Notes: generated by a model from the sequence alone, not told the origin. DNA of 64,000 bases from Candidatus Omnitrophota bacterium (GCA_022703055.1 JAKLEP010000002.1:352480-416479); one strand, 5' to 3'; positions 1 through 40,819 are shown, counted from the stretch's first letter. Program-made: numbers and translations.

Positions 1-1138
1 GAAAAGCGATGATGACCGGCTCGATTAAGCTGGTTAAACCCGAAATAGCCGCATCGACTTGTTCATCGTAGAAATCTGAAACTTTGCCCAACATCTTTTC
101 TAGTTCTCCGGTTTGCTCGCCGACTGAAATCATTCTTGTGACCATCGGAGGAAAAACGCCGCTTTTAATTAAAGGAGTCGCTATACTTTCTCCTTCCTTG
201 ACGTTGGTCCTGACATTTTCTATGGCATTCTCCACAACCTTGTTACCCGATGTCTTACCGACAATCTCCAACGCCGCCAATATTGGCACACCGCTTTGAA
301 TAAGAGTAGAAAGAGTTCTGCTGAACCTACTTATGGCTACCTTCCTAAACAGTTCTCCAAAAACAGGAAGGTTTAATTTTAATTGGTCTATTTTATAACT
401 TCCCTTTTCCGTCCTGGCCCATCGGCCAACTAAAAAACCAATAACTATTATCGCGCCGATCAAATAAAGAACCCACTTGCTAAACAAGTCGCTGACCAAA
501 ATCAATATCCTCGTCGGCAGAGGCAATTCTCCGCCTAACATATCGAAGATGCCCTTAAACGTAGGAACGACTTTTAACATAAGTATGGCAGTAATAATTA
601 TGGCCATTGATACAACCATAATTGGATACACCATAGCCGTCTTAATCTTCCTTTTTAGTCCGCTCATTTTCTCCAGATACGCAGCTAGCCTCTCAAGGAT
701 AATATTAAGCATACCGCTGCTTTCGCCTGCTTTAACCATATTGATATATAAAGCATCAAATACATTGGGATATTTTGCGAAAGAGTTGGAAAGACTATTC
801 CCTACCTCGATATCGTCGTGAAGGCTGCCGATAACTCTCTTAAATTCGCCGTGTTTAATCTGATCCTTAAGAACATCCAAGCTTTGCATTAGAGGGATGC
901 CAGCATCAACCATTGTTGCCAGCTGGCGCGAAAAAATTACCAAGTCATCTGTTTTAACTTTCTTGGCTACCCCGAACTTAAATTCCATTGCCGCGGCACC
1001 TTTGGTTTCGGTGACAGAGATCACGACGAGCTTTCTTTTTCTTAGTTCTTCTACTACTGTCTCCTTATCTTTGGCGACTATTTTCCCTGATACACTTCTT
1101 GCTGCCTGGTCTTTAGCGGTATACTTAAAAGTGGCCAT
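1..1138 (-). CDS. pilC: Type IV pilus / T2SS inner-membrane platform protein, PilC/GspF family (3' end cut by window edge)
   Basis: Absent from the ORF track because no stop lies inside the window. Manual minus-strand translation from the ATG (complement of 1136-1138) gives MATFKYTAKDQAARSVSGKIVAKDKETVVEELRKRKLVVISV... and stays open to position 1. It shows the duplicated T2SSF-type segments FSRQLATMVDAGIPLMQSL and FSRTLSTLIQSGVPILAAL plus hydrophobic TM stretches. It starts 3 nt after the upstream stop. Confidence 0.9.
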   Translation of the reverse strand, partial: MATFKYTAKDQAARSVSGKIVAKDKETVVEELRKRKLVVISVTETKGAAAMEFKFGVAKKVKTDDLVIFSRQLATMVDAGIPLMQSLDVLKDQIKHGEFKRVIGSLHDDIEVGNSLSNSFAKYPNVFDALYINMVKAGESSGMLNIILERLAAYLEKMSGLKRKIKTAMVYPIMVVSMAIIITAILMLKVVPTFKGIFDMLGGELPLPTRILILVSDLFSKWVLYLIGAIIVIGFLVGRWARTEKGSYKIDQLKLNLPVFGELFRKVAISRFSRTLSTLIQSGVPILAALEIVGKTSGNKVVENAIENVRTNVKEGESIATPLIKSGVFPPMVTRMISVGEQTGELEKMLGKVSDFYDEQVDAAISGLTSLIEPVIIAF

Positions 1139-1141: not shown

Positions 1142-1603
1142 CTACTCCTTTTTTGAATAACAACGTTTTATCGCTTCTTCAATTTCGGTTTTAGTTGCAA
1201 TGAAAGTTGCAACTTTACAATTCGATATTTTCTCGATTTCTTCGATGGTAGATATATCCAAAGGATTAGCCATAACCACGCTTAAAACATCTCCGACCTT
1301 ATCCAGAGGTATAGCGTTAAATTGCCTTGCCTTCTCTTCCGGCAATAAAGTCAGGACTTTAGGATCTATATCATATTTATTTACGGCTATGTAGGGGAAA
1401 CCGCATTGCACAATCAAAGCTACGACCACATCCCTTTCGGTAAGATAACCCAGCTTAACAAGGATTTCTCCCAAGACACCCCCGTGTTTCTTCTGGGCCT
1501 CAAGAGCATCCCGGAGCTGCTCATCTGTTATTAAACCCCTTTTAAGCAGGATCTGCCCAAACAACTGCTTCTTTGAAATTATCTCTCTTCTTGAATAAAC
1601 CAT
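1142..1603 (-). CDS. Stand-alone MshEN / T2SSE_N (GSPII) domain protein, 153 aa, no ATPase domain
   Basis: Residues 14-66 show two 24-aa MshEN-type motifs separated by a 5-aa spacer: LFGQILLKRGLITDEQLRDALEAQ - KKHGG - VLGEILVKLGYLTERDVVVALIVQ. The rest matches the GspE/PilB N-terminal fold pattern (GFPYI..., ANPLD). The protein ends before any Walker A. Confidence 0.8.
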   Translation of the reverse strand: MVYSRREIISKKQLFGQILLKRGLITDEQLRDALEAQKKHGGVLGEILVKLGYLTERDVVVALIVQCGFPYIAVNKYDIDPKVLTLLPEEKARQFNAIPLDKVGDVLSVVMANPLDISTIEEIEKISNCKVATFIATKTEIEEAIKRCYSKKE

Positions 1604-1605: not shown

Positions 1606-4600
1606 TTAAATCTCCTTTTTCTCTCTTATTCTATTTTCGATTTCTTTTATAGCATCATCAGTATCTTTACCAATAATCTTGTCTGAAATATAACTTCTTA
1701 AAGTCTCAAGAATCGAGACATCTCCGATTTTTCCGAGAATCTTAACCGCTTTCATGCGGATGCTATTATCTTTATCTCTCAAAGCCTTAGCGACTAACTG
1801 TACGCTTTCCGTTCCTCCGATCTTGCCCAAAGCAAAAACCGCCCGAGAGCGGATATTGGCATCTTCATGGCTAAGTAGTTTCTCCATAGATTTAACCAAC
1901 AAAGGATCATTAATAAAAACTATCAATTCTATCGCATTTCTGACAATGTATAATCTGGCGTCGGATATTTTATCCAATAATTCCAGGTAAACAGCTTCTT
2001 TAATTTTTGTTTTCATTAGTTTGGAAAGCATCCCTCCGATTGCCCGACGGCGGAGAAAAGCGGCAAAATAACCTAAGGAACTAAGGACTTTATCCTCGAT
2101 CATGGCCTCTTCTATCAGCAATTTTACAATCTGAAGGTTCTCAAATTCCAGAATAAATTCGACAACATCATCGTAATAGGCATTTTCATCTACTTTTTTT
2201 ATCAGCTCGGCAACAATACTTTTTAACCTTGAAGGATCCGTAATCTTATCTATCGCATCCTGGAGACATCTTTTTTGTTTTTCGGGAAGATTGGGACGCA
2301 AATTCTCCTTATTTAATTTGTTTATAATTTTCTTGGCAGCATAGAAACTTTTATTATCTATTAATACTAACGATGGATTTGTTAGATGAGTAACTAATTG
2401 AACGTAGACATCTAAATCTTTCTCGTTTCTAAACTCGTCAAAAAGAAAATCCACTAGATTAATCAATGCTTCTTCTTTAGCGGAAGGAATCAAGTCTATC
2501 ATTGAATCAAAGATGCTGCTAATCCTTGATTTTACTTCCGGTGATTTATCTCTTAAAAACTCCCTCCATGTATTTAAAATTTTCTTAAGCAGATCCTCTT
2601 TATTCTGCTTGAAAGCTTCCTGCATAAGAGAATAAACATCTATTTCTCTTTCTAATCCCAGAAAATCCTTGGCCGACATTTTTGATAACTTCTCTACGCG
2701 TTCCTCAAGGGGCAAGTCTTGCCAATTCTTCTCTCCTATGGCCCAAGCGACATCTTCTTTGGGCATACCCGCTCTGGAGAATTTATCTTTCAATAAAGGG
2801 AGCAATCTTTTTTTCTGATTGGGGTTAATCAGGAATCTCTGGATAAGCATGCGCATCTTCGTAGCAGAAGCCTTGGCCTCGGAAAATTCATCGGCTAATA
2901 AATCCAATACTACCTCGTCGGGAAACTCTGGTATGAGCTCTTTTATAATGTCTTTCCCCGAGGCAGTAGACTGACTTCCAGAAAACAACACATCTTTCCT
3001 AAGCTGAGGCTCAAGATTCAAAATGGTATTTGCCAAGTTCTTTTTTTGCTTATCCCACTCTTGAGGATCCTTCTGTATAATCTGATTGGCGATTTTTTGC
3101 ACGGATTTTATTACTACGTCAGCTTGCGCCTCTTTTTTATCTAATGGGCCTTTCCCTTCTTTGGCGATCATATCGCTCATTTTCGACAATGCATCGGCTA
3201 TCTCACTGGGATTGTTTGCCAACTTCTCCAAGAAATCCTCTTTCCCACTGGTCGATATTTTACCCATCAAATAATCAACCAACATTACTTCTTCTAACTT
3301 TTCGCGCTGCTGGGACCTTTTGCCCTTGCTGGCTATTTCAAAACTTATTTCGTTAATAATTATATTGTTTATTTCTTTTGCTTTAAGCTCATCCGATAAA
3401 GAAGCCGTCTCGGAAATCGTATTTAAAATCTCAATGAAAGCGACTAATTCTTTTTTAGTCAAACCCTTCTTCAAAGACAATGTCTCAATATGATGAGCTT
3501 TTAGTATTGACAAAAAAGCATCCTTAAAAGACTTCTTAAGAATCTGGCTGCCAAAAAGTTTGCCATTTACAACTAATTCGTCCTTTACTTCGCTAAAAAC
3601 TATGACTTCATCTCGGGCGAAAACTTCAGTTAACTTCTGGTATATCTGATCAATTGGACTCTGCAGCATCTGGCTAGCCTTAGGATACAGAGAAAAATTA
3701 ATATTAACTAAATAAAGCAGCCTTATTATATCCGGCAATAATTCCAGGCTCTTGGAGCTTAGCTGCTCCACTTTCTTAGTCTCGGTCTCTTCTAGGATTT
3801 CTTTAGCGTAATCTATCGCCCTGCCTATGATAGCCTTATCTGATTCTTTAATCCGCTTTGCATATTGCGTCGCCCGATGATAATCTTCGGCTTTTTTGAA
3901 ATGAAAATACAACTCTCCGGCTATCTTATTAATATCTCCGGAATGAATACCCTCTTGTATCTCGCCTACCTGCTGGTGTAAATTCTTCAATTTGTCCTGC
4001 TCGATAAGATCATAGAGCACTTTTCTTATCTCGCCGCTCACAAAACTCATCTCATCGCCGGACTCGCTAACCTTTTGTCTAATGATACCTGCTTTCTTGG
4101 CGCTTTCAAGGATATCTAAAATATACCCCTCGTTTTCTTTGCCCATCTGGTGCAGCAGATTAACATTAAAATCCTGGCCGATGACAGCTGCCTTGGAAAT
4201 TATCTCTTGGGCTGCGGTATCCATGGCCTTAATTCTTTCCTGAATTACCTCAATAAGAGAATGCGGTATATCCGACTCATTAATTTCTATCTTCCCCCAT
4301 TGGCCCTTCTTTAGGTAAATAAATCCTTTCTGAATCAAGAATTTAAGAAGTTCTTCAACAAATAACGGATTTCCCATGCTTATTTTATAAATCAAATTAC
4401 CTAGCCCGGAAGTCAGTTCGATATTCACCAAGATTGTATGCATCATCTGGCTCGTCCCGTTTTCGGAAAGGCCAGAAAGACTTATTTCTTCTGATAAGCT
4501 ATTCTTAACATTACTGAACTCGCTCACGAAAGGATATTCGGCTAATGCTGAGTCTATGGCATCTTTATCCCTGAATGCCACACAAATCATAATCGCAGAA

Positions 4601-5739
4601 TTTTGTTCTTTCAAAGACAAGATAACACCTAGAGACTGCTTATCTATAAAATAAAAATCATCCAAAATAATAGTTAAAGGACTTTTACTAGCAATGTTGC
4701 TGCATAACTGAATCAACGAATTCTTAATTTGCTCCTCTGTTTTTTGTTCAGCAAGTTCTTGGCTCAAAGAATAATCTTCTTGGACGATATCTCCCAAAGC
4801 AGGGATAAGCCTAGTCAACAAAAAGAGCTGTTGGTTAGATAAATCTTTTAGAAAATCTTCTTTATTTATTGTCAATTTTCTTTCTTTTAAGTTCAGCAGA
4901 AAACCTTGAATGCTGGCAACGCAGCAACTATAAGGTTGGTTAATATGCTGCTCTAAACAAGCAGAATAAAAATATGCGGATTTATTTGAAGACAGGAACT
5001 TAATGAATTCATCCAATAACCTTGATTTACCTATACCGGCTTCCCCGGTAATAGCTACGATTTTAGTTTTTTTGTTTTGAGCCGTAGCAGACAATAAGTC
5101 TTTAAGATGGCTCAATTGGTTTTGTCTTTCAATCAGCGACGGACAAGGAAAACGCTCCAAGATTTCTTTTTCTCTTAAAACTTCCGTCGAGATATCGCTT
5201 GTCAAAGATATACGGTTTTTACCTTTCTGTTTAGAGACATACAGGGCTTTATCTGCCAGGTCTATAAGACGCAACGCATCAGGAGCATCATCTGGAAAAT
5301 TGGCCACGCCTATACTTAAATTAACGTTTGAGATTATTTGACCGGAGCTGGTTTTGAATTTATTTTCGGAAACAGACTTGGTAATCCTGCCTGCTACCGC
5401 TAAAGCATTAGATAATTCCCCACCGGGTAAAATTACGGTAAATTCATCGCCGGCGTATCTTATGACCGTGTCTCCTCCTCTGACGCATCTACCTAAGATT
5501 TCTACAACTCCTTTCAAAATATCATCTCCGGCAAGATGACCGTACTTATCATTTATTGTCTTAAAATCATCTATGTCTATCATGAATAACCAAATATCTT
5601 TACCTGTCCCTTTAAAATTAGATATCTCACTCGGCAAATACTGAAATAGATAGCGGCGGTTAAAGGCATTGGTTAACTCATCCCTGAATACCAACTGTTC
5701 TACTCTTTTTTCTGGCGCTCTATCTTCTATATCTGGCAT
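1606..5739 (-). CDS. Multidomain signalling protein: GGDEF (AGDEF signature, RxxD I-site) - AAA_16/STAND P-loop NTPase - long helical repeat region - C-terminal HEAT repeats
   Basis: The N-terminus carries IDIDDFKTINDKYGH and RGGDTVIRYAGDEF (nt 5440-5481). Walker A is GEAGIGKS (nt 5023-5046), with a Walker B-like IILDDF and GNPLFVEELLKFL, which is typical of AAA_16 signalling ATPases. The C-terminus has HEAT/PBS-lyase-like repeats (DANIRSRAVFALGKIG, DNSIRMKAVKILGKIG). Confidence 0.85.
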   Translation of the reverse strand: MPDIEDRAPEKRVEQLVFRDELTNAFNRRYLFQYLPSEISNFKGTGKDIWLFMIDIDDFKTINDKYGHLAGDDILKGVVEILGRCVRGGDTVIRYAGDEFTVILPGGELSNALAVAGRITKSVSENKFKTSSGQIISNVNLSIGVANFPDDAPDALRLIDLADKALYVSKQKGKNRISLTSDISTEVLREKEILERFPCPSLIERQNQLSHLKDLLSATAQNKKTKIVAITGEAGIGKSRLLDEFIKFLSSNKSAYFYSACLEQHINQPYSCCVASIQGFLLNLKERKLTINKEDFLKDLSNQQLFLLTRLIPALGDIVQEDYSLSQELAEQKTEEQIKNSLIQLCSNIASKSPLTIILDDFYFIDKQSLGVILSLKEQNSAIMICVAFRDKDAIDSALAEYPFVSEFSNVKNSLSEEISLSGLSENGTSQMMHTILVNIELTSGLGNLIYKISMGNPLFVEELLKFLIQKGFIYLKKGQWGKIEINESDIPHSLIEVIQERIKAMDTAAQEIISKAAVIGQDFNVNLLHQMGKENEGYILDILESAKKAGIIRQKVSESGDEMSFVSGEIRKVLYDLIEQDKLKNLHQQVGEIQEGIHSGDINKIAGELYFHFKKAEDYHRATQYAKRIKESDKAIIGRAIDYAKEILEETETKKVEQLSSKSLELLPDIIRLLYLVNINFSLYPKASQMLQSPIDQIYQKLTEVFARDEVIVFSEVKDELVVNGKLFGSQILKKSFKDAFLSILKAHHIETLSLKKGLTKKELVAFIEILNTISETASLSDELKAKEINNIIINEISFEIASKGKRSQQREKLEEVMLVDYLMGKISTSGKEDFLEKLANNPSEIADALSKMSDMIAKEGKGPLDKKEAQADVVIKSVQKIANQIIQKDPQEWDKQKKNLANTILNLEPQLRKDVLFSGSQSTASGKDIIKELIPEFPDEVVLDLLADEFSEAKASATKMRMLIQRFLINPNQKKRLLPLLKDKFSRAGMPKEDVAWAIGEKNWQDLPLEERVEKLSKMSAKDFLGLEREIDVYSLMQEAFKQNKEDLLKKILNTWREFLRDKSPEVKSRISSIFDSMIDLIPSAKEEALINLVDFLFDEFRNEKDLDVYVQLVTHLTNPSLVLIDNKSFYAAKKIINKLNKENLRPNLPEKQKRCLQDAIDKITDPSRLKSIVAELIKKVDENAYYDDVVEFILEFENLQIVKLLIEEAMIEDKVLSSLGYFAAFLRRRAIGGMLSKLMKTKIKEAVYLELLDKISDARLYIVRNAIELIVFINDPLLVKSMEKLLSHEDANIRSRAVFALGKIGGTESVQLVAKALRDKDNSIRMKAVKILGKIGDVSILETLRSYISDKIIGKDTDDAIKEIENRIREKKEI

Positions 5740-5753: not shown

Positions 5754-7466
5754 TTATTCTTCGCTTGTAACCCTTAAGACCTCTTCTAGCGAAGTCAACC
5801 CTAAAGTAAATTTCTTAACTGCATCATCCCAAAGGGTGACCATACCGTTATTTTTAATGGCGTAATTCTTGATTTCATCGGACGGGATTCTTTTTACAAT
5901 CATTTCTCTTATCTGGTCGTCAATCATTAAAACTTCCAATAAACCCATTCTTCCCCTGTATCCGGTGTTAAGGCAGGCGCTGCAACCCCTGCCGCGATAA
6001 AAAACTGTCCCTTTCTCGGGTTTTAAACCGATCTTATCTAACATTTCTCTCGGCACCTCATATGGTTCCTTACAGGCAGGACAAATTTTCCTGCATAATC
6101 TTTGGGCGCAGGCCATAATCAATGAAGAAGCCACCAAAAACGGCTCAACGCCCATATCTATAAGACGCGCGATGGCACCCGAAGCATCGTTAGTATGCAG
6201 AGTAGAAAATAATAACTGTCCAGTAAGCGATGCCTTAACCGCAATATCGGCGGTCTCGGAATCTCTGATTTCTCCGACCATGATTACATCGGGGTTCTGT
6301 CTTAGAAGAGCCCTTAAACCATTGGCAAAGGTCAACCCTATATCTGGTTGAACATGAATCTGAGTGATGCCGTCGATTTCATATTCAACAGGATCTTCTA
6401 CGGTAATTATATTTCTTTCCGGCGTATTAAGTTGGTTGACTATAGAATATAACGTTGTTGATTTTCCGCTTCCTGTCGGACCGGTGACTAAAAGCATACC
6501 GTACGGACGCGATATCGCTTCTTTAAAAAGAGCTGTTGTTTCCGGAAAGAATCCTAAGCCATCCAAACCAATAGCAAGATTGGCTTTATCAAGAAGCCTT
6601 AATACAACTTTCTGCCCATATGTAGTAGGCAACACCGAAACGCGGAAATCTATTTCTTTATTGGCAATCCTTATCTTGAATCTTCCGTCTTGAGGAAGCC
6701 GCCACTCGGTGATATCGAGCCTGGACATAATCTTGAGCCTGACTAAAATCGCATTCTGATTTTTTTTGGGAAAACGATAAACATCATGTAATGCGCCGTC
6801 GACGCGGTAGCGGACCCGCATACCATCCTGTTCAGGCTCAAGATGAATATCAGAAGCCCTTTGCTTTACCGCTTCTTTTATCGCCAAATTAACTACCTGA
6901 ACTATGGGAGCTTTGCGGCTTTCATCAACAAGTGATGTACCGATTTCCAACTTCTCGTCAGCGTCATCAATGACTTTTATGGTGTCATCTTCGCCGATCT
7001 CCTTAACCATGTCGGACATGGTTTTCAAAACATCCTTGGTGTAATATTTTTTTATGGCATTTTCTATATCCGAATCGGTAGACATTACAATATCTACCTC
7101 GTATCCGGTAATATTCTTAATATCGTCTAAGGCAAAAATATTTAGCGGGTCGGCAGTCGCCAATGTCAACGTCCTTCCAATCTGAGAGATAGGAATCAAA
7201 TGATACTGCCGGGCGATTCTTTCGGGAACCATAGTCAAAATCTGAGGGTCTATTTTATACCTGGAAAGGTCTATCGGTGGAATATTCAATTCCTTGGCCA
7301 AAAGTATCAAAAGCTCTTTTTCTGTCACCCAGCCCTTCTGCACCAGAACCTTATCCAGGCCGATATTCTTCTCTTTCTGGATTCGTATCGCCTCATCAAC
7401 CTGATCTTTGGTAAGGTTTCTGCTGTTGATAAGGATCTCAATTATTTTTTCTTTTAAGGTCTTCAT
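5754..7466 (-). CDS. pilB: Type IV pilus assembly / T2SS ATPase, PilB/GspE family (paralogue 1)
   Basis: Has an N-terminal T2SSE_N-like region, Walker A GPTGSGKST, Walker B DPDVIMVGEIRD, a His-box STLHTNDA, and a tetracysteine motif CPAC...CSAC followed by GYRGR. Confidence 0.9.
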   Translation of the reverse strand: MKTLKEKIIEILINSRNLTKDQVDEAIRIQKEKNIGLDKVLVQKGWVTEKELLILLAKELNIPPIDLSRYKIDPQILTMVPERIARQYHLIPISQIGRTLTLATADPLNIFALDDIKNITGYEVDIVMSTDSDIENAIKKYYTKDVLKTMSDMVKEIGEDDTIKVIDDADEKLEIGTSLVDESRKAPIVQVVNLAIKEAVKQRASDIHLEPEQDGMRVRYRVDGALHDVYRFPKKNQNAILVRLKIMSRLDITEWRLPQDGRFKIRIANKEIDFRVSVLPTTYGQKVVLRLLDKANLAIGLDGLGFFPETTALFKEAISRPYGMLLVTGPTGSGKSTTLYSIVNQLNTPERNIITVEDPVEYEIDGITQIHVQPDIGLTFANGLRALLRQNPDVIMVGEIRDSETADIAVKASLTGQLLFSTLHTNDASGAIARLIDMGVEPFLVASSLIMACAQRLCRKICPACKEPYEVPREMLDKIGLKPEKGTVFYRGRGCSACLNTGYRGRMGLLEVLMIDDQIREMIVKRIPSDEIKNYAIKNNGMVTLWDDAVKKFTLGLTSLEEVLRVTSEE

Positions 7467-7472: not shown

Positions 7473-9197
7473 TTATATTTTATCTGCGATTGTAGTTCTC
7501 AGCACTTCTTCCAGCGAAGTTATGCCGGCGATCGCCTTTTCGATACCGTCCTGCCTCAAAGTAATCATGCCTTCTTTTATCGCCTGTTCTTTTATCTTGT
7601 GTTCTTCTGCGCGCTGAAAAATCAAGTCTTTAATTTTAGGAGTAAGGACTAAGGTCTCGGCAATACCGACCCTGCCTTTGTATCCAGAATTAAAACAAAA
7701 CTTGCATCCTTTGCCTCTATAGAATGTAGTTGTTTTGTTAGGGATACTGGCACCCAACCTTTTTGCCATTTCCTCGCTGATTTCATAAGATGTCTTACAT
7801 TTATCGCATATCTGTCTCAAAAGCCTTTGCGAAACGATACAAATTACTGACGAGGCAATCAAAAACGGTTCAACGCCCATATTGACTAAACGAACAATAG
7901 TTCCTGGCGCGGTAGTGGTATGTATAGTACTTAAAACCAAATGCCCTGTGAGTGCTGCTTTAATGGCGATGTCAACGGTTTCAAAATCCCTTATTTCTCC
8001 GACCATGATTACATCGGGATCCTGACGCAACATTGATCTTAAAGTCGCGGCGAATGTCAGACCAATATCGACCTTTGCGGTAACCTGATTTATCCCAGGG
8101 AGATCATATTCCACAGGATCTTCGACGGTAATGATATTAATCTCCGGCGCATCTACGTATTTCAAAATTGAATAAAGCGTAGTTGTTTTACCCGTGCCGG
8201 TAGGCCCTGTAACTAAAATCATGCCGTGCGGCCTCTTGGAGCAAGACTTTAGATCTCCAAGAGCTTTATTATTAAAACCAAGTTTATTGACATCTAGCAT
8301 GGCCATCTTTTTATCCAAAATTCTAAGGGCAACTTTTTCGCCAAAAGTAGAAGGCAGTATGGAAACACGGAAATCAACCTCTCTATCGTCAGCCTTAGTC
8401 TTGAATCTTCCGTCTTGCGGTAGCCGATGCTCGGCGATATCCAAACCAGAAATAACCTTTATTCTTGAAACCATGGGAGCTTGCAGTGCCTTAGGAGGGG
8501 ATTCAATTTCTCTTAAAACTCCGTCTATCCTGAAACGAATCCTTAACCTTTTCTCCATAGGCTCAATTAAAATATCGCTTGCCTTTGCATCGATAGCTTG
8601 TTTTAATATCGCCTCGGTGAATTTTATTACCGGCGCTTCCTGGGTCAGGCGCGCCAATTCTTCAACATTGAAAGATTCTTCTACGCCTCCGCCGTCGATA
8701 AATTCAAGCTTTTCTTCTTCACTGGTGATATCTTTTATGATTTTTTCCATCATCCGATGAGAATCTTCCCCGTAATAAGCCTCAATTGCCTGAGAGATTT
8801 CCTGCGGCCGACCGATAATAGGATTTATCTCAAATCCGGTTAAAGCCTTAACATCATCTATAGCAAAAATATTCAAAGGATCGGCCATTGCCAGGGTTAA
8901 AGAATTACCAATCTTTGAAACAGGTATTATCTGGTAGTAAACTGCGATATCCCGGGGGATTATTTTTATGACTTCGGGGTCTATTTTGACGCGTGATAAA
9001 TCCAACGGCGGCAAACCTAAACTTTGGCTTAAAACTATCGCCAAATCATTTTCGTTAACTAGCTTCAGTTGTACCAATATTTCACTTAGTCTTCCGCCCT
9101 TTTCCTTCTGGACCTCGAGAGCCTTTTCGAGATCCTTGGGGTCTAGTAATTTATTCTTGATTAATAATTCGGTTAAGCGGTCCTTTAAGGAAATCAT
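7473..9197 (-). CDS. pilB: Type IV pilus assembly / T2SS ATPase, PilB/GspE family (paralogue 2)
   Basis: The N-terminal T2SSE_N region has RL-containing MshEN-like motifs. Also present are Walker A GPTGTGKTT, Walker B DPDVIMVGEIRD, a His-box STIHTTTA, and a tetracysteine motif CDKC...CKFC followed by GYKGR. Confidence 0.9.
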   Translation of the reverse strand: MISLKDRLTELLIKNKLLDPKDLEKALEVQKEKGGRLSEILVQLKLVNENDLAIVLSQSLGLPPLDLSRVKIDPEVIKIIPRDIAVYYQIIPVSKIGNSLTLAMADPLNIFAIDDVKALTGFEINPIIGRPQEISQAIEAYYGEDSHRMMEKIIKDITSEEEKLEFIDGGGVEESFNVEELARLTQEAPVIKFTEAILKQAIDAKASDILIEPMEKRLRIRFRIDGVLREIESPPKALQAPMVSRIKVISGLDIAEHRLPQDGRFKTKADDREVDFRVSILPSTFGEKVALRILDKKMAMLDVNKLGFNNKALGDLKSCSKRPHGMILVTGPTGTGKTTTLYSILKYVDAPEINIITVEDPVEYDLPGINQVTAKVDIGLTFAATLRSMLRQDPDVIMVGEIRDFETVDIAIKAALTGHLVLSTIHTTTAPGTIVRLVNMGVEPFLIASSVICIVSQRLLRQICDKCKTSYEISEEMAKRLGASIPNKTTTFYRGKGCKFCFNSGYKGRVGIAETLVLTPKIKDLIFQRAEEHKIKEQAIKEGMITLRQDGIEKAIAGITSLEEVLRTTIADKI

Positions 9198-9655
9198 TTC
9201 TTATCTTTTTCTTTGTAGTATTTATCTATCGCCCTGCGGATATCCGATGAGGTACTTACGAAGGTCTGAATAGTACAACCAGTTATCAATTCCACGTCTT
9301 CTACCGCCTGGATATTCAAAGGGTTAGACATCGCCAAAGTCAAGCTCTTGCCCATTACATCTATCGGTATAAGACAATATTGAGCGGCTACGTTCTTAGG
9401 AACCATGTTTATAATTTGGGCATCTATTTCATAATTTGTTAAGGGCAGGTATGGAAAACCGTATTGGCAAGTCAGCGCCTGAGCAATATCCTCCTCTTTG
9501 GCAAAATTGAGTTCAACCAATACTTCACCGATAAGACCGCCCTTTTCCTTCTGGACCAAAAGGGCTTTCTCAAGCTGCTTCTGATTGATTATGCCCCTTT
9601 CAATAAGAAGCTCACCTAATTGTTTCCTGGTTATTTTATTTAAAGGCTCTGCCAT
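9194..9655 (-). CDS. Stand-alone MshEN / T2SSE_N (GSPII) domain protein, 153 aa, no ATPase domain
   Basis: Residues 12-64 read QLGELLIERGIINQKQLEKALLVQ - KEKGG - LIGEVLVELNFAKEEDIAQALTCQ. The remainder is GspE-N-like (GFPYLPL, SNPLN). Its stop overlaps the next gene's start by 4 nt. Confidence 0.8.
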   Translation of the reverse strand: MAEPLNKITRKQLGELLIERGIINQKQLEKALLVQKEKGGLIGEVLVELNFAKEEDIAQALTCQYGFPYLPLTNYEIDAQIINMVPKNVAAQYCLIPIDVMGKSLTLAMSNPLNIQAVEDVELITGCTIQTFVSTSSDIRRAIDKYYKEKDKK

Positions 9656-9656
9656 A

Positions 9657-11096
9657 TTATGACCAAATCTGATTCTTTCCCTTGGGACTGTTTTTCTTTA
9701 AGGTTTCCAAGGCCTTGGTGATTAATTCATCGGCGCTAACTCCATCAATAGGATTCTCGGTAACCGTACCGCTTAGCGTTAATCTCTTTTTATTATCCGG
9801 TTCACCCTGGAAGACCAGCTCTATCTTTTTTCTCATCTCTTCAGCAAAATTAAGGCTTTGGCGCTTATTCTTTTCCGGCAAAACGACTGCGAATTCGCTG
9901 TCGGAAAATCTGGCTGCCTTATCGATGTCACTGGTGCCTTCCCGGATTAGCGTAGCTATCTTTTTTAAAACTGACTCTTCGGCGATTTTTCCATAACGCT
10001 GCTCGTAATCGCCAAAATCATCGAGGCTTAACAGCACAAAAGAGCAGGGTCTCTGAAAGTTAATCGCCCTCTTTATTTCCTCGTCCAGACGGCTACGGAT
10101 ATATGATTCGTTAAAAAGCCCAGTCAAGACATCTCTTATTTCCAGTTTATCAATTTTCTTAAGCAGGATGTCATTTTCCACTGCGATTGAAGTCTGTTTT
10201 GCAAAAATACTCATCAGCTCCGTATCAGAAATAGAATAAGTAAAATTCTGGTTGTCATTGCCTATGCCTATAAGACCGTATGATTTATCGTGAACGACCA
10301 CAGGAACGATTAAGGCATTAACCACCATTAGATGCTTCTGCAACTCTTCGATATCTGCGTTGACTTCCTGACGGCTATCTAAAACTAATGTTTCCCTACC
10401 AGCAAGAAGCCTACCCAGAGCATTTTTCCCCATGACTACCCTGAACTGCTCCAGGCCCATGCTTTTTAGCCTCAAGCTTTTAGGGCCGTGCATGGATTTT
10501 AAAACATACTCCTTGGAGGATTCTTCAAACAAAATCAAAAAACCCAGATTAGCGTCGCCAATCTGGGTGACTTTCTCTACGATTACTTCAAGCACCTCAT
10601 TTAAATCATCACCTTGCGATATAAGATTACTTATATGAAGCAAACTAGACAAGGCAAGAACACGTTTGTTTATCTCAAGATTTATCTCTTTGGTCCTTTC
10701 GCTATAAGTCTGTAATTCGGACATATTGTCTTTAATGCGGCCAGTAAGCTCGGCCAGGGATTTGCCCAGATCGCCTATTTCGTCCTGCCTCTTGACGGAG
10801 ATTTTGTGTTCAAAATCCCCATTGGCTATTATTTTTGCGTCAGAACTTATTTTAAGTATATTATCTACCATCTCTTTGACGATGGTAAAACCCAATAGGG
10901 CAAAGATTACAGAAGAAGCTAGCAGGAAAGTAATAGAAATATTGCTTTTACTCAAGAAAAAACCCTGAAACCAACTGGGAAAGATATAATTGAAGCAAAC
11001 AAGGATAGGGATGACCGACATTAAACAAAAGGCCACTATTAACTTTGGCCTTATTCCTCTTGAACTAATGGAAAATTTATTGGTAAATTTACTCAT
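9657..11096 (-). CDS. Membrane sensor: 2 TM - HAMP - GAF - degenerate GGDEF domain (SDSEF)
   Basis: Two N-terminal hydrophobic helices are followed by a HAMP-like segment (res ~72-125) and a GAF-like region (res ~150-310). The C-terminal GGDEF fold begins RDVLTGLFNESY. Its signature is replaced by SDSEF (nt 9891-9905), and the substrate-binding block is degenerate (LDDFGDYEQRYG instead of DxDxFKxxNDxxGH). Confidence 0.8.
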   Translation of the reverse strand: MSKFTNKFSISSRGIRPKLIVAFCLMSVIPILVCFNYIFPSWFQGFFLSKSNISITFLLASSVIFALLGFTIVKEMVDNILKISSDAKIIANGDFEHKISVKRQDEIGDLGKSLAELTGRIKDNMSELQTYSERTKEINLEINKRVLALSSLLHISNLISQGDDLNEVLEVIVEKVTQIGDANLGFLILFEESSKEYVLKSMHGPKSLRLKSMGLEQFRVVMGKNALGRLLAGRETLVLDSRQEVNADIEELQKHLMVVNALIVPVVVHDKSYGLIGIGNDNQNFTYSISDTELMSIFAKQTSIAVENDILLKKIDKLEIRDVLTGLFNESYIRSRLDEEIKRAINFQRPCSFVLLSLDDFGDYEQRYGKIAEESVLKKIATLIREGTSDIDKAARFSDSEFAVVLPEKNKRQSLNFAEEMRKKIELVFQGEPDNKKRLTLSGTVTENPIDGVSADELITKALETLKKNSPKGKNQIWS

Positions 11097-11247: not shown

Positions 11248-12345
11248 TTAAAAGACTATTCTTTTCTTATTGATATTCAAAAGGATAGCAATAAAAATTA
11301 AGAAGATAAACATTGAGGAACCACCGTAGCTAATTAAAGGCAGGCATAGGCCAACAACCGGGCATATTCCAATGGTCATTGAAATATTGATTACTATCTG
11401 CGAAACCAGCAAAGCTATAAAGCCGCTGGATAAATATTTCGCGAATTTATCTTTGGATTGAAAAGCGATCAAAAGCAAATAATATATTAACGCAGCATAA
11501 AGCAACAAGAGCAGCATCGCACCCAGAAACCCCCATTCTTCTCCAATAACGGAAAATATGAAATCCGTATGCCGCTCAGGAAGGAAATTTAGCTGATTCT
11601 GCGTTCCAGCCAACCAGCCCTTGCCTAAGAATCCTCCCGAGCCAACAGCGATCTTTGATTGAATGACAGTATATCCGGCTCCCAAAGGATCAACATTGGG
11701 ATTAAGAAAAACCATCAGCCTGTCTTTCTGATAAGGCTTCAAAAAATGCCAACCTACAGGTACGCTTAATATCATCAAGATAAAAAGCGACAAAATATAT
11801 TTTATCTTGGCCCCGCCTACAATAAGCATTGCGAAGAAAACCGGGATAAATAAAAGAGCGGTTCCTAAATCGGGCTGCAAAAATATAAGTCCGACTGGCA
11901 CCAAGGTTATGAGTATAGGAATTAACAATTCCTGAACAAAGCTTGTACCTGAGAAATAATTCCTTGCATAACTCTGTCTTTGACTAAAAATTCTAGCCAA
12001 GACTAAAACAATCCCTAATTTGGCGATTTCGGAAGGCTGAAAATTCAACCCAAACAGCTCAACCCAGCGACGGGCTCCCAATATTTCCCGCCCTGTTAAC
12101 AAAACTATAAGTAAAAATACAATACTAAGCCCATAGATAAAAAAAGCGAGATCGAAAAATCTTCTGTAATTAATATTACTTACAAGAAACAAAACAAAGA
12201 TACCTATCCCGGCCCAAGTTAATTGATCCAGGAATACATCCCTGAATAATTGCCCCCTCTGATAAGTTACGCTGTATAACACTGAAAGACCAAAGGCTAA
12301 TATCAAAATTACCAGACCAATAATTATCTTATTATAATTATTCAT
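11248..12345 (-). CDS. rodA: Peptidoglycan glycosyltransferase RodA (FtsW/RodA/SpoVE family)
   Basis: Polytopic membrane protein with QPSEIAKLGIVL and the C-terminal LPLISYGGSS motif. It follows mrdA in the mre operon. Confidence 0.9.
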   Translation of the reverse strand: MNNYNKIIIGLVILILAFGLSVLYSVTYQRGQLFRDVFLDQLTWAGIGIFVLFLVSNINYRRFFDLAFFIYGLSIVFLLIVLLTGREILGARRWVELFGLNFQPSEIAKLGIVLVLARIFSQRQSYARNYFSGTSFVQELLIPILITLVPVGLIFLQPDLGTALLFIPVFFAMLIVGGAKIKYILSLFILMILSVPVGWHFLKPYQKDRLMVFLNPNVDPLGAGYTVIQSKIAVGSGGFLGKGWLAGTQNQLNFLPERHTDFIFSVIGEEWGFLGAMLLLLLYAALIYYLLLIAFQSKDKFAKYLSSGFIALLVSQIVINISMTIGICPVVGLCLPLISYGGSSMFIFLIFIAILLNINKKRIVF

Positions 12346-12347
12346 TA

Positions 12348-14057
12348 TTAGTTCAACATGCCTTCCGACGACATAAACTCAAGCAGTTCTTGCGCCACAG
12401 CTACAGCGCTGTGGCTTGATCCGCCGTACTCTAAAAATACGCAAAAAGCAACCTTGGGCTTATCTGCGGGACAAAAACCCACAAACCAAGCATGTGTTTT
12501 CCCGTTAGATGCCTGAGCCGTCCCGGTTTTTCCGGCTGCTTTCAAAGTATCCAAACCTGATAAATGCGCGGTACCGGAATCCGCCTCCACAACTTTTCTT
12601 AAGGAAATTTTTACAAACTCCAAGTTAGACTGCTTAAAAGGTAATTTGCCAGGCGTCTTATCCTTGTGAGCTTTTTCGTTGGCTACGTACTCTACTATGT
12701 GAGGGGTCGGGACAAATCCTCCATTTGCAACCGAGGCAACAAGTCTCGTTGCCTGCAGTGGCGTAACTAGGATTTCTCCTTGGCCGATGGCGAAATTTGC
12801 CGTATCACCCTTGTACCAATCCTGCTTACGTTTCAATTTTCTTAGCATCCTATCGGGGATATTGCCTTTATCCTCCCCGGGCAAATCTATTTGAGTCTTT
12901 GAGCCCAAGCCGAATTCTTTTGCATATCTTGTCAGCATGTCTGGACCGACTAACAAACCGAGGCTATAAAAATAGACATCGCAAGAATGAATAATTGCTT
13001 GCATAAAATTTTGCAAACCGTGAGTCTCCCAACAGGCAAAACTCCTATTGCCAACCCGTAGGCTACCATTGCAGACAAAACTGGTATTTGGCGTTGCCTT
13101 TTTAGTTTCTAAAGCAGCTATAGCGGTTACGATTTTAAAAACTGAACCGGGAGCAAACGAACTGCTGATTGCCCGGTTAATCATAGGAGAACGATAATCG
13201 TTCAGGATTCTTTTTATCTCCGCATTTGAGTTATCGACCGTAAACAAATTAGGATCAAAACTTGGGGAGCTGACCATACCAAGTATCTCGCCGGTGTAAG
13301 GCTGCATGGCAACTATCGCTCCTCTTTTATCGGCTAATAATTCGGCGGCTTTTTTCTGGATCCTGGAATCAACGGTCAATACTATATCTTTGCCTTTTAC
13401 CGTCGGACGTATCCCCAAGACCCTTTTCTGGCGACCTCTGTTATCCACCTCTATCTGAATACCGCCGCTTTCTCCTCTTAAATTTATGTCACAATACTCT
13501 TCCACCCCGCCATAACCGATAATATCCTGGATTTCATAACCGTAATTCTTTAATTTAGTAATCCGGGAACGGTCAATTAATCCCACATAGCCTAAAATAT
13601 TTGCTCCCGCCTCCCGATCGGGGTAATAACGCTTGGGCTGTATCTGGACTAAAACTCCAGGCAAATCGAATTTCTCCTGTTCGGCCAGAAGGGCCTCTCT
13701 TTTCGTCGCATTCTCCCGGATGATTATTGGAGAAAAAGGCGAGAGATACCCTAATTTAATCTTTTTCTTTATTTTATCGATATTGATGTTTAATATTTCG
13801 CTTAAACGCCTAAGATTCTTGTCTCTAAAATCTTGAGGAATAACGACAATGTCAAAAGTTAATTTACTATCGGCTAAAACTTTGCCGTTTCTATCAAATA
13901 TTCTTCCGCGCATAGCATCCCATTCGATTATGCGTATGTGATTTCTTTCGGCTAATTCGTAATAATACCCTCCCCTGATCAGCTGGATATATACTAGACC
14001 AAAGAAAATCACCAGAAAAGAAAAAACCAGAATTAAACTGAATATCTTAAATCGCAT
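12348..14057 (-). CDS. mrdA: Penicillin-binding protein 2 (elongasome transpeptidase)
   Basis: Has an N-terminal anchor and a PBP dimerisation region. Transpeptidase motifs are SVFK (SxxK), SCD and KTGTA. It sits in mreBCD-mrdA-rodA synteny. Confidence 0.9.
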   Translation of the reverse strand: MRFKIFSLILVFSFLVIFFGLVYIQLIRGGYYYELAERNHIRIIEWDAMRGRIFDRNGKVLADSKLTFDIVVIPQDFRDKNLRRLSEILNINIDKIKKKIKLGYLSPFSPIIIRENATKREALLAEQEKFDLPGVLVQIQPKRYYPDREAGANILGYVGLIDRSRITKLKNYGYEIQDIIGYGGVEEYCDINLRGESGGIQIEVDNRGRQKRVLGIRPTVKGKDIVLTVDSRIQKKAAELLADKRGAIVAMQPYTGEILGMVSSPSFDPNLFTVDNSNAEIKRILNDYRSPMINRAISSSFAPGSVFKIVTAIAALETKKATPNTSFVCNGSLRVGNRSFACWETHGLQNFMQAIIHSCDVYFYSLGLLVGPDMLTRYAKEFGLGSKTQIDLPGEDKGNIPDRMLRKLKRKQDWYKGDTANFAIGQGEILVTPLQATRLVASVANGGFVPTPHIVEYVANEKAHKDKTPGKLPFKQSNLEFVKISLRKVVEADSGTAHLSGLDTLKAAGKTGTAQASNGKTHAWFVGFCPADKPKVAFCVFLEYGGSSHSAVAVAQELLEFMSSEGMLN

Positions 14058-14533
14058 TTTTTAAGTATAGTGTAGATAAGCGGGGACACCAAGGTAGTAT
14101 AAAAAGCTTCCGGTATCATAATGAAGAATAAAGATTTTACAAAAGTTAATTCTACGGCAATCATTTTTATATTAAGAAAATAAAAAATCAATGAATTCAA
14201 GAGGCTGATTAAAAAAACCAAGGCAAGCTGGAGGAATTTTTCGAATTCATCCTGATAGACCGATGATTTGATTTTATCGATCGCGAGGCTGCAGATCATA
14301 AAAGAAACTGCATTGGTTCCGAACCTTGCGAAACTAAGAATATCTTTTATCAAACCCAAAAGTCCAGAAAATAAAATTGCATTTTTTCTTTTTAGATGCA
14401 GATTAAAATAGACGACAAAAATAATAAAAAAATCCGGGCGGATTCCAAATAAACTTAAGAACCTGGGATAATTTAATTCCAAGAAAACTGCTACAAAAAT
14501 TATTGCCGCCAAAATAAAATATTTCTTGAGCAT
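14033..14533 (-). CDS. mreD: Rod shape-determining protein MreD
   Basis: Small polytopic membrane protein located directly between mreC and mrdA. The call rests on position and hydrophobic profile. Confidence 0.7.
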   Translation of the reverse strand: MLKKYFILAAIIFVAVFLELNYPRFLSLFGIRPDFFIIFVVYFNLHLKRKNAILFSGLLGLIKDILSFARFGTNAVSFMICSLAIDKIKSSVYQDEFEKFLQLALVFLISLLNSLIFYFLNIKMIAVELTFVKSLFFIMIPEAFYTTLVSPLIYTILKKCDLRYSV

Positions 14534-14535
14534 AT

Positions 14536-15318
14536 TTAATTTAATATAACCAGAACCTCTTCTAGCCTAGATAAATTTGTTGCGGGTTTTATAGAGCAAT
14601 TTTTCATAAGGCCCGTAGAGTCTAAATCAACATCTATTACTCGCCCAATAAGCAAGCCTTTGGGAAAAACGTCTCCTAGGCCGGAAGTTACTACAATATC
14701 GTTATCTTTTACATCGGTATCTAACGATAGAAAGTACATTTTACAACTTCCGCCTATACTACCCGATACAATGCCCTCGTCCCGGCTATCCTGGATTAGG
14801 GCAGCCGCCTTAAAATTCGGATCATTAATTAAAAGGACTCTGCTGCTATCCTTGCTTACCTCGATAATTTTTCCTACTAAACTGACATCACTTATCACCG
14901 GCATTCCGTTTTCCAAGCCGTCTCTTTTGCCTTTATTAATAATTAAAATTGAAAGCCAGTTGGAAGGATCACGCCCGATTACCTGGGCGGCTTTAGTAGA
15001 AAAAGTGGTTTTACTCTTAAAAGACAATAACCTATTTAATCTTTCATTTTCCCTGAAGACTTCTTCGTATGCAGAAAGTTGCTGGTGCAAAGGAGCTATC
15101 TCTTTGTTCAAAAATAGATTTTCCCGATAAAGTTTGCGGTAGGAAACAATCAGCTTTATTTCATTAAAAATACTATGGGTAAGTTTTAGAGGCAACAGAA
15201 ATACATCGGCTAAACCTTTTTTGAGACTTAATATTGCGGCGGGCTGCAAGAAAAAAAGGATAATGATAAGGATGGAAACAACAGAAGGAACTAAGAATTT
15301 TTTCTTAAATCTTATCAC
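14536..15318 (-). CDS. mreC: Rod shape-determining protein MreC
   Basis: Has an N-terminal anchor, a coiled-coil segment, and a conserved C-terminal VVTSGLGDVFPKGLLIGRV. Confidence 0.85.
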   Translation of the reverse strand: MIRFKKKFLVPSVVSILIIILFFLQPAAILSLKKGLADVFLLPLKLTHSIFNEIKLIVSYRKLYRENLFLNKEIAPLHQQLSAYEEVFRENERLNRLLSFKSKTTFSTKAAQVIGRDPSNWLSILIINKGKRDGLENGMPVISDVSLVGKIIEVSKDSSRVLLINDPNFKAAALIQDSRDEGIVSGSIGGSCKMYFLSLDTDVKDNDIVVTSGLGDVFPKGLLIGRVIDVDLDSTGLMKNCSIKPATNLSRLEEVLVILN

Positions 15319-15343
15319 ATTTATTTAAAGTAAGAATGGTTAG

Positions 15344-16408
15344 CTATTCTATTTTTTTGGTGACGGTGACTTTTTTCAAATATTTAATTTCGTCCAAAAC
15401 TTTTCCCGTCCCCAAAGCAACCGCAGTTAGCGGATCTTCGGCAATATGCACCGGTAAACCAGTTTCTTCAGAAATTAATTTATCTAGACCGCGAAGCAGA
15501 GAACCTCCTCCGGCCAAAACTATGCCACGCTCAATTAAATCAGCCGATAACTCAGGAGGGGTTCTTTCTAGAGTAATTTTCGCAGCATCAAGTATCGCTC
15601 TTATCGGTTCCTGCAAAGCCTCCCTTACTTCCGAAGATGAAATTACAACCATTTTAGGCAAACCAGAAACCAGATCTCTTCCTTTTACTTCCATGGTCAG
15701 TTCTTCATCCAACGGATACGCAGAACCAACCCTTATCTTGATTTCTTCGGATGTTCTTTCCCCGATCATTAAATTATAAGTTTTCTTTATATGTTCGATG
15801 ATTGCAACATCCATTTCATCGCCTGCAATATTAATTGATTTAGAAAATACGATTCCTGCTAAAGAAATAACCGCCATTTCTGTGGTTCCGCCACCGATAT
15901 CAACAATCATATTGCCTGCAGGTTCAACTATGGGTAAGCCCGTTCCGATTGCTGCAGCCATTGGTTCTTCAATCAGAAAAACTGCTCTCGCTCCTGCTCT
16001 TTCCGCGGAATCTCTTACTGCTCTTTTTTCAACTTCGGTAATTCCTGAAGGTATAGCGATGACAATTCTCGGCCTCACTAAAACTTTACGCCTATGCACC
16101 TTCTTTATAAAATAGCGAAGCATCGCTTCAGTGATTTCAAAATCAGCAATGGCCCCGTCTTTCATCGGTCTGATGGCAACAATGTTACCGGGGGTACGTC
16201 CGAGCATGCGCTTCGCCTCTTCACCAACGGCCAAAACGTTTGTGGTATCCTTTTGGATTGCGACAACCGAAGGTTCGCATAAAACTACCCCCTCGCCCTT
16301 GACATAAACAAGGGTGGTCGCAGTACCCAGGTCAATACCCATGTCATTGGAAAAAAGACCAAGAATAAAGTCAAAAGTCTTCTTCAAATAATCAATGAAT
16401 TTGCCCAT
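15344..16408 (-). CDS. mreB: Rod shape-determining actin homologue MreB
   Basis: Contains [15 protein letters not shown] and DIGGGTTE motifs. I moved the start to MGKFIDYL (16408) because AGGAG lies 6 nt upstream. The track ORF extends to 16435. Confidence 0.95.
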
Positions 16409-16545
16409 TTTATCTCCTTTGGTTGGTTTCATCATAATATATCAAAACTTATTGTCTGTCAAATAGTTTTTGCTCTGTAAAAATGCCCTCTATAGGGCTT
16501 AATTTGTTGCTTAAGTTGAACTTTGGAGTAATTTACCAATCTGGG

Positions 16546-40731: not shown

Positions 40732-40808
40732 TGGTGGGCGGTGCCCGACTTGAACGGGCGACCTTTGCGATGTGAGCGCAACGCTCTAACCAGCTGAGCT
40801 AACCGCCC
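40732..40808 (-). tRNA. tRNA-Val (anticodon CAC), CCA encoded
   Basis: A full cloverleaf was drawn by hand: acceptor GGGCGGT/ACCGCCC, D stem GCTC/GAGC, anticodon stem TTGCG/CGCAA with loop CTCACAT, T stem GCCCG/CGGGC, and a 3' ACCA. Confidence 0.9.
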
Positions 40809-40819
40809 GACGCTCTATA

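Follow-up and report, generated by a model that had tools for sequence, protein, structure and literature searches.

A stand-alone MshEN gene among pilus motor genes

The gene considered here lies in a 64,000-nucleotide stretch of a Candidatus Omnitrophota bacterium genome (GCA_022703055.1, JAKLEP010000002.1:352480-416479), part of a 223-kb JGI metagenome contig and referred to below at its full length as the window. At 9194..9655, on the minus strand, an open reading frame (ORF) starting with an ATG at 9655 encodes a 153-aa stand-alone MshEN/GSPII protein that we call copy B and examine as a candidate receptor for cyclic diguanosine monophosphate (c-di-GMP). Gene order along the minus strand is mreB-mreC-mreD-pbp2-rodA, a gene for a HAMP-GAF-GGDEF protein with a degenerate GGDEF active site, copy B, pilB1, pilB2, a gene for a GGDEF-STAND-HEAT fusion, copy A (a second stand-alone MshEN protein), and pilC. 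The degenerate GAF-GGDEF gene ends 1 nt before the copy B start codon, and the copy B stop overlaps the pilB1 start by 4 nt (ATGA, 9194..9197, minus). A first-pass annotation, made from the sequence alone, had given the gene the same coordinates with no strand, and had described this overlap, a protein of 153 aa without an ATPase domain, and two 24-residue motifs separated by a KEKGG spacer. All of these descriptions hold, with the strand now assigned as minus, and the translation matches the annotated motif strings exactly.

Copy B matched two profiles of the domain, an alignment that the annotation had suggested. The Pfam family PF05157 (MshEN) matched residues 65-150 (E 9.1e-20, 70.9 bits; cut-off 23.1 bits), and NF053729, the NCBIfam model of a 53-residue MshE-related c-di-GMP-binding module, matched residues 12-62 with 60.1 bits (cut-off 38 bits). 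The corresponding NF053729 scores were 64.7 bits for copy A, 49.3 for PilB1, and 35.0 for PilB2, the last of which is below the cut-off. The C-terminal part of copy B is an MshEN_C, N1E-like alpha/beta subdomain (residues 65-150; 9206..9463, minus), as supported by Pfam, the structural model, and column conservation, and its region includes a linker, YGFPYLPL, that is nearly invariant in the family. There was no Pfam match to the T2SSE ATPase domain (PF00437), and the full-length PilB model TIGR02538 scored only 82.8 bits against a cut-off of 675.65, covering model positions 2-141 only. We conclude that copy B is not a PilB, despite the labels that the JGI database places on family members. 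Those labels read 'type IV pilus assembly protein PilB', with 'hypothetical protein' used elsewhere, although the ATPase is absent. No PilZ family matched copy B in Pfam or NCBIfam, and its fold is that of MshEN.

The AlphaFold2 (AF2) model of copy B (predicted local distance difference test, pLDDT, 88.1; predicted template modelling score, pTM, 0.79) starts with a bundle of four helices (residues 13-19, 25-38, 42-48, and 54-65) and continues into an alpha/beta unit. Residues 1-10 are disordered in the model, with L13 as the first residue of helix alpha-1, and the pocket is accordingly not occluded by a capped, extended helix. The top Foldseek match in the PDB was Vibrio cholerae MshE with c-di-GMP (5HTL, E 2.2e-11), followed by the GSPII-A (9G1W, template modelling (TM) score 0.83) and GSPII-B domains of Thermus PilF; the PDB 7LKM family was also among the fold matches. 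MshE (5HTL) was likewise matched by sequence (E 4.9e-17). Overall, copy B is a genuine and complete MshEN/GSPII domain protein that has no ATPase.

Conservation and gene order in Omnitrophota

A species scan with one genome per species returned 194 relatives, of which the best 80 loci were analysed; with the window's own contig, these gave 81 orthologues. The loci analysed are Omnitrophota metagenome-assembled genomes (MAGs) or single-amplified genomes, some under other labels. Loci L013, L014, L028, L031, L041, L042, L044, L058, L059, L064, L079, L081, L083, and L086 were deposited as 'uncultured Planctomycetales/Planctomycetia' or 'Patescibacteria group'; these are probably mislabelled. Beyond the scan, copy B had 3810 sequence homologues. 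None of the top 120 had an ATPase; they were 137-221 aa long, in most cases ~149 aa, and those with an organism name were from Omnitrophota. Among ten divergent short representatives, the named members were Omnitrophota or unclassified 'bacterium', plus one Wallbacteria entry that proved to be a contig-end GspE fragment, so short length alone is no proof of a stand-alone gene. PF05157 has 24,203 database matches, many 145-215-aa representatives among them. Single-domain PF05157 proteins are common in databases.

The copy B family has a fixed place in the pilus motor operon. A full-length pilB1 lay directly downstream in 79/79 loci that have downstream sequence, which is also the count of ATPase-less MshEN genes next to pilB that the first-pass annotation had proposed to make. 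The spacing is variable: the gap between copy B and pilB1 ranged from -29 to +225 nt (median 20, interquartile range 3-87) and exceeded 50 nt in 36/79 loci. The 4-nt overlap in the window had been read as translational coupling that would match the stoichiometry of the two proteins, and this part of the annotation is not borne out, since the overlap occurs in only 6/79 loci. Together with the variable gaps, this rules it out as a conserved coupling device. On the other side, 71/80 loci had the degenerate GAF-GGDEF gene directly upstream of copy B, at a median distance of 5 nt. Copy B is therefore coupled more tightly to the upstream GAF-GGDEF gene than to pilB.

Two departures from this order were seen. 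Six species have an inserted gene for a PilT-like ATPase of ~350-380 aa (Walker A GATGSGKST, without MshEN) between the GAF-GGDEF gene and copy B (L065, L075, L079 at 8908-9969, L082, L083, and L084). Three species have a radical-SAM-like gene of ~583 aa (CxxxCxxC) in place of the GAF-GGDEF gene and keep the MshEN-pilB1-pilB2 order (L023:8173-9918, L047:7990-9747, and L077:994-2748).

The same gene order bears on a reading that the first-pass annotation had itself raised, in which the copy B ORF is an N terminus split off from pilB by a frameshift, or an artefact of assembly. This reading is supported solely by the 4-nt overlap between the ORF and the start of pilB1 and by the JGI 'PilB' labels. 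PilB1 is full length (574 aa) and has its own MshEN, to which copy B is only 42% identical, while copy B stands as an ORF of its own in 79/79 species, at gaps of up to 225 nt, and the identical copy B protein was found on 8 contigs from different samples. We regard the frameshift or artefact reading as refuted, with a negligible chance of being correct.

Mean pairwise identity, calculated over 51 species with complete loci, indicates how strongly copy B is held. Copy B showed 74% identity, compared with 71-75% for the PilB ATPase cores, 68% for the PilB1 N-domain, 57.5% for the PilB2 N-domain, and 51% for the degenerate GAF-GGDEF protein. Copy B was 38-42% identical to copy A, to the PilB1 and PilB2 N-domains, and to the PilB N-domains of Geobacter and Myxococcus. 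As these distances are about equal, an origin of copy B by recent duplication of the PilB1 N-domain is not supported. Copy B is a real, separate, and strongly conserved Omnitrophota gene that is under selection.

Motif half-sites of copy B

The two half-sites of the MshEN motif lie within the four-helix bundle. Motif I spans residues 12-35 (QLGELLIERGIINQKQLEKALLVQ; 9551..9622, minus) and motif II residues 41-64 (LIGEVLVELNFAKEEDIAQALTCQ; 9464..9535, minus), with the KEKGG spacer at residues 36-40 (9536..9550, minus), and this 24-5-24 spacing was present in copy B and all 81 orthologues. Conservation across the orthologues was high at nearly every key column. In motif I, the residue of the window copy was found at Q12 in 75, L13 in 81, G14 in 81, G21 in 64, L28 in 80, L32 in 75, and Q35 in 79 sequences; in motif II, at L41 in 81, I42 in 78, G43 in 80, I57 in 81, L61 in 77, and Q64 in 81. 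Within the spacer, G39 was conserved in 80/81 and G40 in 81/81. The residue preceding motif I, K11, was found in 80/81, and basic residues also occur at positions 6-7. The hydrophobic motif positions are kept as Leu or Ile in the family, and the critical Gly (position 3) and Gln (position 24) are both present in each half-site, as G14 and G43 and as Q35 and Q64.

Two residues of the window copy depart from the published motif, and the first-pass annotation had identified both correctly: the Arg at position 1 is replaced by Gln12 and Leu41, and the central Gly of motif II by Asn50. At position 50, the orthologues have Gly in 74, Lys in 3, Asn in 2, and Ser in 1, which rules out Asn as a family feature; Asn50 is a rare local, strain-level variant at a turn position. 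A sequencing error is excluded by the recurrence of the identical protein on 8 independent contigs. Position 1 shows the opposite pattern, and the orthologue columns mark its Gln/Leu pair as a family trait and no defect. Neither the strict published motif nor, in both halves, its relaxed form ([RKPN] at position 1) was matched by any copy B orthologue (0/81 each), the latter because position 1 is Gln/Leu; motif II of the window copy additionally fails at position 10 (Asn50). When position 1 was ignored, the relaxed motif was matched twice by 58/81 and at least once by 77/81.

Published work on the MshEN site indicates which of these positions matter. In MshE, changes at Arg9 carried a cost of less than 5-fold in c-di-GMP binding, while G11L abolished binding, G40I weakened it 72-fold, and G11I was the most severe mutation in vivo (PMC5013675). 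Even a Gly to Ala change at the site cost 10-fold in affinity (PMC12002112). The GSPII-B domain of Thermus PilF has K167 and L196 at position 1 and binds c-di-GMP with a dissociation constant (KD) of 6 nM; the L196R mutant bound 4-fold more weakly and K167L had a KD of 2 nM, and the consensus was widened in that study to (R/K/L)LG (PMC11731258). The literature thus shows position 1 to be the most tolerant of the key motif positions, and the lost Arg is no anomaly that would weaken binding, given a Lys/Leu domain that binds at 6 nM. The extended consensus fits Leu41, but Gln12 does not fit it and Asn50 still deviates at position 10. Leu41 has a direct high-affinity precedent in L196 of PilF GSPII-B, and Gln12 has none.

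With both position-1 Arg residues replaced, copy B might instead bind another nucleotide, such as cyclic GMP-AMP (cGAMP) or a different cyclic dinucleotide. Neither stand-alone family, A or B, has the canonical residue at position 1, and the V. cholerae domain (VcMshEN) does bind cGAMP, if weakly, with a KD of 3.3e-4 M (PMC5013675). Guanine specificity in MshEN, however, is conferred by the backbone amides of Gly3 and of the residue after it, which are conserved in copy B, and a position-1 Leu or Lys tightens c-di-GMP binding in PilF GSPII-B (PMC11731258). The neighbouring signalling genes are all of GGDEF or HD-GYP types, and no CD-NTase was found among the annotated genes of the window, where annotation does not extend to the operon at 47-64 kb. 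We consider a ligand other than c-di-GMP highly improbable.

Degenerate sites in the two PilB paralogues

Both PilB paralogues encoded downstream of copy B carry an MshEN domain fused to a T2SSE ATPase: PilB1 (574 aa; 7473..9197, minus) and PilB2 (570 aa; 5754..7466, minus), each identified by Pfam and NCBIfam. PilB1 has a complete MshEN of its own (NF053729 at residues 7-58, PF05157 at residues 60-145). The c-di-GMP-contacting positions of these domains are altered. In PilB1, position 3 of motif I was Thr in 57, Ile in 6, and Lys in 5 sequences, and position 3 of motif II was Ser in 68, with Gly in 0/73 for both; the central Gly and the motif II Gln are lost as well. In PilB2, position 3 was Ile in motif I and Arg or Asp in motif II, with Gly in 0/63 and 3/63, respectively. 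The relaxed motif, again with position 1 ignored, was matched by 0/79 PilB1 sequences; among PilB2 sequences, 2/72 matched at one half-site and 0/72 at both. Since a Gly to Ala change costs 10-fold in affinity and bulky substitutions abolish binding, the cis c-di-GMP sites of PilB1 and PilB2 are predicted to be impaired.

Copy B keeps the full set of contacting residues except Arg1, and the PilB1 and PilB2 sites are degenerate phylum-wide. No other observation argues as strongly for c-di-GMP sensing in trans by copy B as this complementarity between intact and degenerate sites. The first-pass annotation had suggested that the locus supplies GSPII/MshEN domains in trans; the idea is plausible, and the retention of Gly3 in copy B alongside its loss from PilB1 and PilB2 strengthens it.

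Copy A and duplicated modules

A second stand-alone MshEN protein of 153 aa, copy A, is encoded at 1142..1603 (minus; Pfam, NCBIfam) and is 41% identical to copy B. It belongs to its own conserved stand-alone family (326 hits, ~153 aa), in which Gly3 was present in 119/119 sequences in both motifs and Gln24 in 119/119, with position 1 being Leu in the first motif and Phe/Val in the second. Copy A was always found just upstream of pilC, including in loci ordered B-PilB1-PilB2-A-PilC (for example, L089:10001-10462 and L090:10001-10465). Additionally, another clade has variants of 212-221 aa with an extra N-terminal 53-residue MshEN_N, giving the architecture (MshEN_N)2-MshEN_C, in the copy B slot between the GAF-GGDEF gene and pilB1 (L087:8001-8639, protein P0018, and also P0005 and P0015). 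To judge by these architectures, the putative nucleotide-binding module is what the operon repeatedly keeps or adds.

Operon and c-di-GMP gene context

The protein encoded upstream of copy B is a membrane HAMP-GAF-GGDEF protein (9657..11096, minus; Pfam, with motif columns in 65 orthologues). Its GGDEF active site is degenerate, reading SDSEF in the window and R-x-G-D-[D/N]-E-F in the family, and the position of the I-site reads S/T-E-I-D, without RxxD. Given these motifs, it is unlikely to be a local cyclase, and it probably serves as a sensor or scaffold. The window encodes two GGDEF proteins; the other is a 1377-aa GGDEF-STAND/AAA_16-HEAT protein (1606..5739, minus; Pfam, slot comparison) with an AGDEF motif and an RxxD I-site. 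This protein, which joins a cyclase domain to a STAND NTPase and HEAT repeats in an unusual combination, was found only in L001, L007, and L008.

The slot between pilB2 and pilC that the fusion occupies usually has a different content. In 47/58 loci, it holds a REC-HD-GYP gene (for example, L030:14045-15112, L055:13898-14974, and L074:14001-15101), with intact HHE/HD/GYP motifs in 45/47. From these motifs, the product is probably a response regulator with c-di-GMP phosphodiesterase activity, encoded within the pilus motor operon. REC-HD-GYP is absent from the window, where the slot holds the GGDEF-STAND-HEAT gene and copy A; other lineages have copy A alone. Downstream lies pilC, encoding the T2SSF platform protein, of which the N-terminal 379 codons are in the window (1..1138, minus; translation) before the gene runs off the window start; the full protein in locus L001 has 404 aa with T2SSF domains. 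Related contigs continue with PilC, pilins, PilM/N/O, and a secretin, indicating a complete type IVa pilus system.

The proximity of the GAF-GGDEF gene suggests an alternative role for copy B, as mainly a partner or output adaptor of the HAMP-GAF-GGDEF sensor, the two together recruiting or positioning the PilBs in a manner like FimX-PilZ-PilB, with c-di-GMP binding secondary or absent. The GAF-GGDEF gene precedes copy B in 71/80 loci at a spacing tighter than that to pilB1 (1 nt in the window), and its GGDEF domain is degenerate and without an I-site family-wide, as in the scaffold-type FimX (PMC11656802). Against this role, the three species with a radical-SAM-like gene in its place keep B-PilB1-PilB2, and the six species with a PilT-like gene have it between the GAF-GGDEF gene and copy B. 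The supposed sensor is also much less conserved than copy B (51% versus 74%), and an adaptor role leaves unexplained the strict conservation of Gly, Gln, and Leu at c-di-GMP-contacting positions. We therefore regard this alternative as unlikely.

Other features of the window are less closely tied to the motor genes. The mreB-mreC-mreD-pbp2-rodA cluster (11248-16435, minus) is directly upstream of the pilus motor operon in the same orientation, and this linkage of cell-shape and pilus-motor clusters is conserved in most species, covering most of loci L007-L086. No further pilus or c-di-GMP genes were found at 24-46 kb of the window, which holds housekeeping genes. Among these are a 519-aa DUF1846 protein (41414-42973, minus; E 2.8e-170) and genes for tRNA-Val and tRNA-Met (40732-41079).

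A candidate trans-acting receptor for the pilus motor

We propose that copy B serves a type IVa pilus motor with two PilB ATPases as its c-di-GMP receptor, acting in trans, and put the probability of this reading at roughly 0.5. The four-helix bundle of copy B (residues 12-64) would bind one extended c-di-GMP molecule through the backbone amides of Gly14 and Gly43, the hydrophobic triads L13/I57/L61 and L28/L32/I42, and Gln35 and Gln64. At position 1, Gln12 and Leu41 would take over from the canonical Arg in stacking on the guanines. The action in trans would follow from the loss of the critical glycines at the cis MshEN sites of PilB1 and PilB2. Its N1E-like subdomain (residues 65-150) may dock on PilB1 or PilB2, or on the platform partners PilM or PilC; in homologous systems, GspE and PilF N-domains bind GspL and PilM (cited in PMC12002112; PMC11656802). 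Pilus extension would thereby be coupled to the local c-di-GMP level, with the membrane GAF-GGDEF protein and the REC-HD-GYP phosphodiesterase supplying sensory input and local signal turnover.

Docking of this kind could also operate without a ligand. Copy B might be a ligand-independent decoy or competitor at the PilM/PilC docking site that gates or alternates the access of PilB1 and PilB2 to the platform. It has a full MshEN_N and MshEN_C, at ~40% identity to the PilB1 and PilB2 N-domains; the N-terminal domain of GspE and PilF binds GspL and PilM in homologues (PMC12002112, PMC11656802); and PilM is encoded in related loci. Foldseek additionally gave weak local matches to complexes of EpsE-N with EpsL and GspE with GspL (2BH1 and 4PHT; E 0.16-0.73, probability 0.91-0.99, 63-65 columns). 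A pure decoy, on the other hand, has no need for the invariant Gly14, Gly43, Gln35, and Gln64 or the Leu triads, and the duplicated MshEN_N variant in the same slot suggests that the nucleotide-binding module is under selection. A decoy role seems to us quite unlikely. Both this role and that of an adaptor are compatible with c-di-GMP binding, and either may merge with the receptor model into a relay resembling FimX-PilZ-PilB.

The domain identity, fold, conservation, and synteny of copy B, its independence from pilB, and the complementary pattern of sites are observed; its binding of c-di-GMP, its partner, and the sign of the regulation are inferred. Several points weigh against the trans-acting receptor. 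Position-1 Gln in motif I is without an assayed precedent and fails both the strict and relaxed motifs, and the window copy deviates at the Gly of the alpha-3/alpha-4 turn. The GSPII-A domain of PilF provides a caution: in a truncated construct, a motif II position-1 Ser and Ala41 led to complete loss of binding, and in the full domain, restoring a perfect consensus still gave no binding, an effect attributed to a capped, extended helix alpha-1 and inter-subdomain contacts (PMC12002112). Motif conformity is therefore no proof of binding. The PilB1 N-domain scores above the NF053729 cut-off (49.3 bits), and its predicted failure to bind follows from the Gly to Thr/Ser changes. The tighter coupling of copy B to the GAF-GGDEF gene than to pilB means that its primary partner could be that sensor. 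The latter is probably no cyclase, so in most species it would not be the source of c-di-GMP. According to a review, the link between nucleotide binding by the PilB N-domain and motor output is itself still unclear (PMC11656802).

Relation to known systems

The domain family, its motif, and ATPase-less MshEN receptors are already known. V. cholerae MshE (5HTL) has an N-domain with the same two-subdomain fold as copy B (Foldseek TM 0.68-0.74), the same 24-5-24 layout, and the same Gly3, Leu triads, and Gln24, and the basic residues of copy B at R/K6, R/K7, and K11 resemble its K5/R7/K8 patch (PMC5013675). Copy B differs in being unfused to a T2SSE ATPase, in having Gln/Leu rather than Arg/Arg at position 1, and in a structural alignment identity of only 29%. 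The GSPII-B domain of Thermus thermophilus PilF (8PDK/8PE0) is likewise an extra MshEN module for a PilB-type ATPase, and shares with copy B a Leu at motif II position 1 (L196, corresponding to L41) and the lack of Arg at motif I position 1. It is, however, one of three tandem GSPII domains in cis, whereas copy B is a separate polypeptide; the two are 31% identical, and motif I position 1 of copy B is Gln, not Lys.

Known proteins outside this arrangement offer partial parallels. To our knowledge, PA3740 of Pseudomonas aeruginosa is not encoded in a pilB operon. Like copy B it lacks an ATPase, consisting of MshEN and a divergent T2SSE_N1, and it has been listed among c-di-GMP binders and linked to surface motility (PMC5013675). 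Its C-terminal subdomain is highly diverged, whereas copy B keeps a canonical MshEN_C and invariant adjacency to pilB. The C-terminal MshEN of Escherichia coli NfrB is another c-di-GMP switch outside an ATPase, and the NCBIfam NfrB model matches copy B at residues 9-150 (E 7.6e-17), but there the module forms part of a glycosyltransferase fusion and acts on polysaccharide synthesis instead of pili. In the PilZ-FimX-PilB system of Xanthomonas and Pseudomonas, the PilB N-domain is non-sensing and the signal passes through a degenerate-GGDEF protein and a small adaptor, which attaches to the PilB N-domain (PMC11656802). That system is built from a PilZ fold and an EAL receptor, neither related to the MshEN fold of copy B, so the likeness is one of analogy only.

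The c-di-GMP and Omnitrophota literature that was searched describes neither a conserved stand-alone MshEN gene beside site-degenerate pilB genes nor a characterised stand-alone MshEN that acts on PilB. A 2024 review of PilB cofactors lists no stand-alone MshEN (PMC11656802). A 2016 table of architectures includes PA3740 and proteins of the (MshEN_N)2 type, and from pil operons it has no protein made of MshEN alone (PMC5013675).

Implications for pilus regulation in Omnitrophota

MshEN is one of few broadly distributed c-di-GMP receptor domains. If the proposed role is correct, copy B would be a new class of PilB cofactor, extending a list that now includes PilZ, FimX, CpiA, and PlzR, and a natural trans version of the tandem GSPII array of Thermus PilF. 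More tentatively, and at a little short of even odds in our judgement, c-di-GMP reception and pilus extension may have been parted altogether in Omnitrophota. A dedicated MshEN protein of 149 aa, joined in some lineages by copy A or replaced by the form with a duplicated module, would sense c-di-GMP at a non-Arg, hydrophobic-stacking site and deliver the signal in trans to two PilBs with dead cis sites, within a self-contained signalling operon (degenerate GAF-GGDEF sensor, MshEN, PilB1, PilB2, REC-HD-GYP, PilC). Such a system would be a clean natural separation of receptor and motor and would introduce no new principle. With receptor and ATPase on separate polypeptides, signal binding and ATPase function could be dissected without domain truncations.

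At a practical level, these stand-alone MshEN proteins carry the wrong annotation in public MAGs, either 'PilB' or 'hypothetical protein'. For Omnitrophota, an uncultivated phylum of very small cells, attaching to a surface or a host is probably central, and copy B gives a testable handle on pilus regulation in these bacteria.

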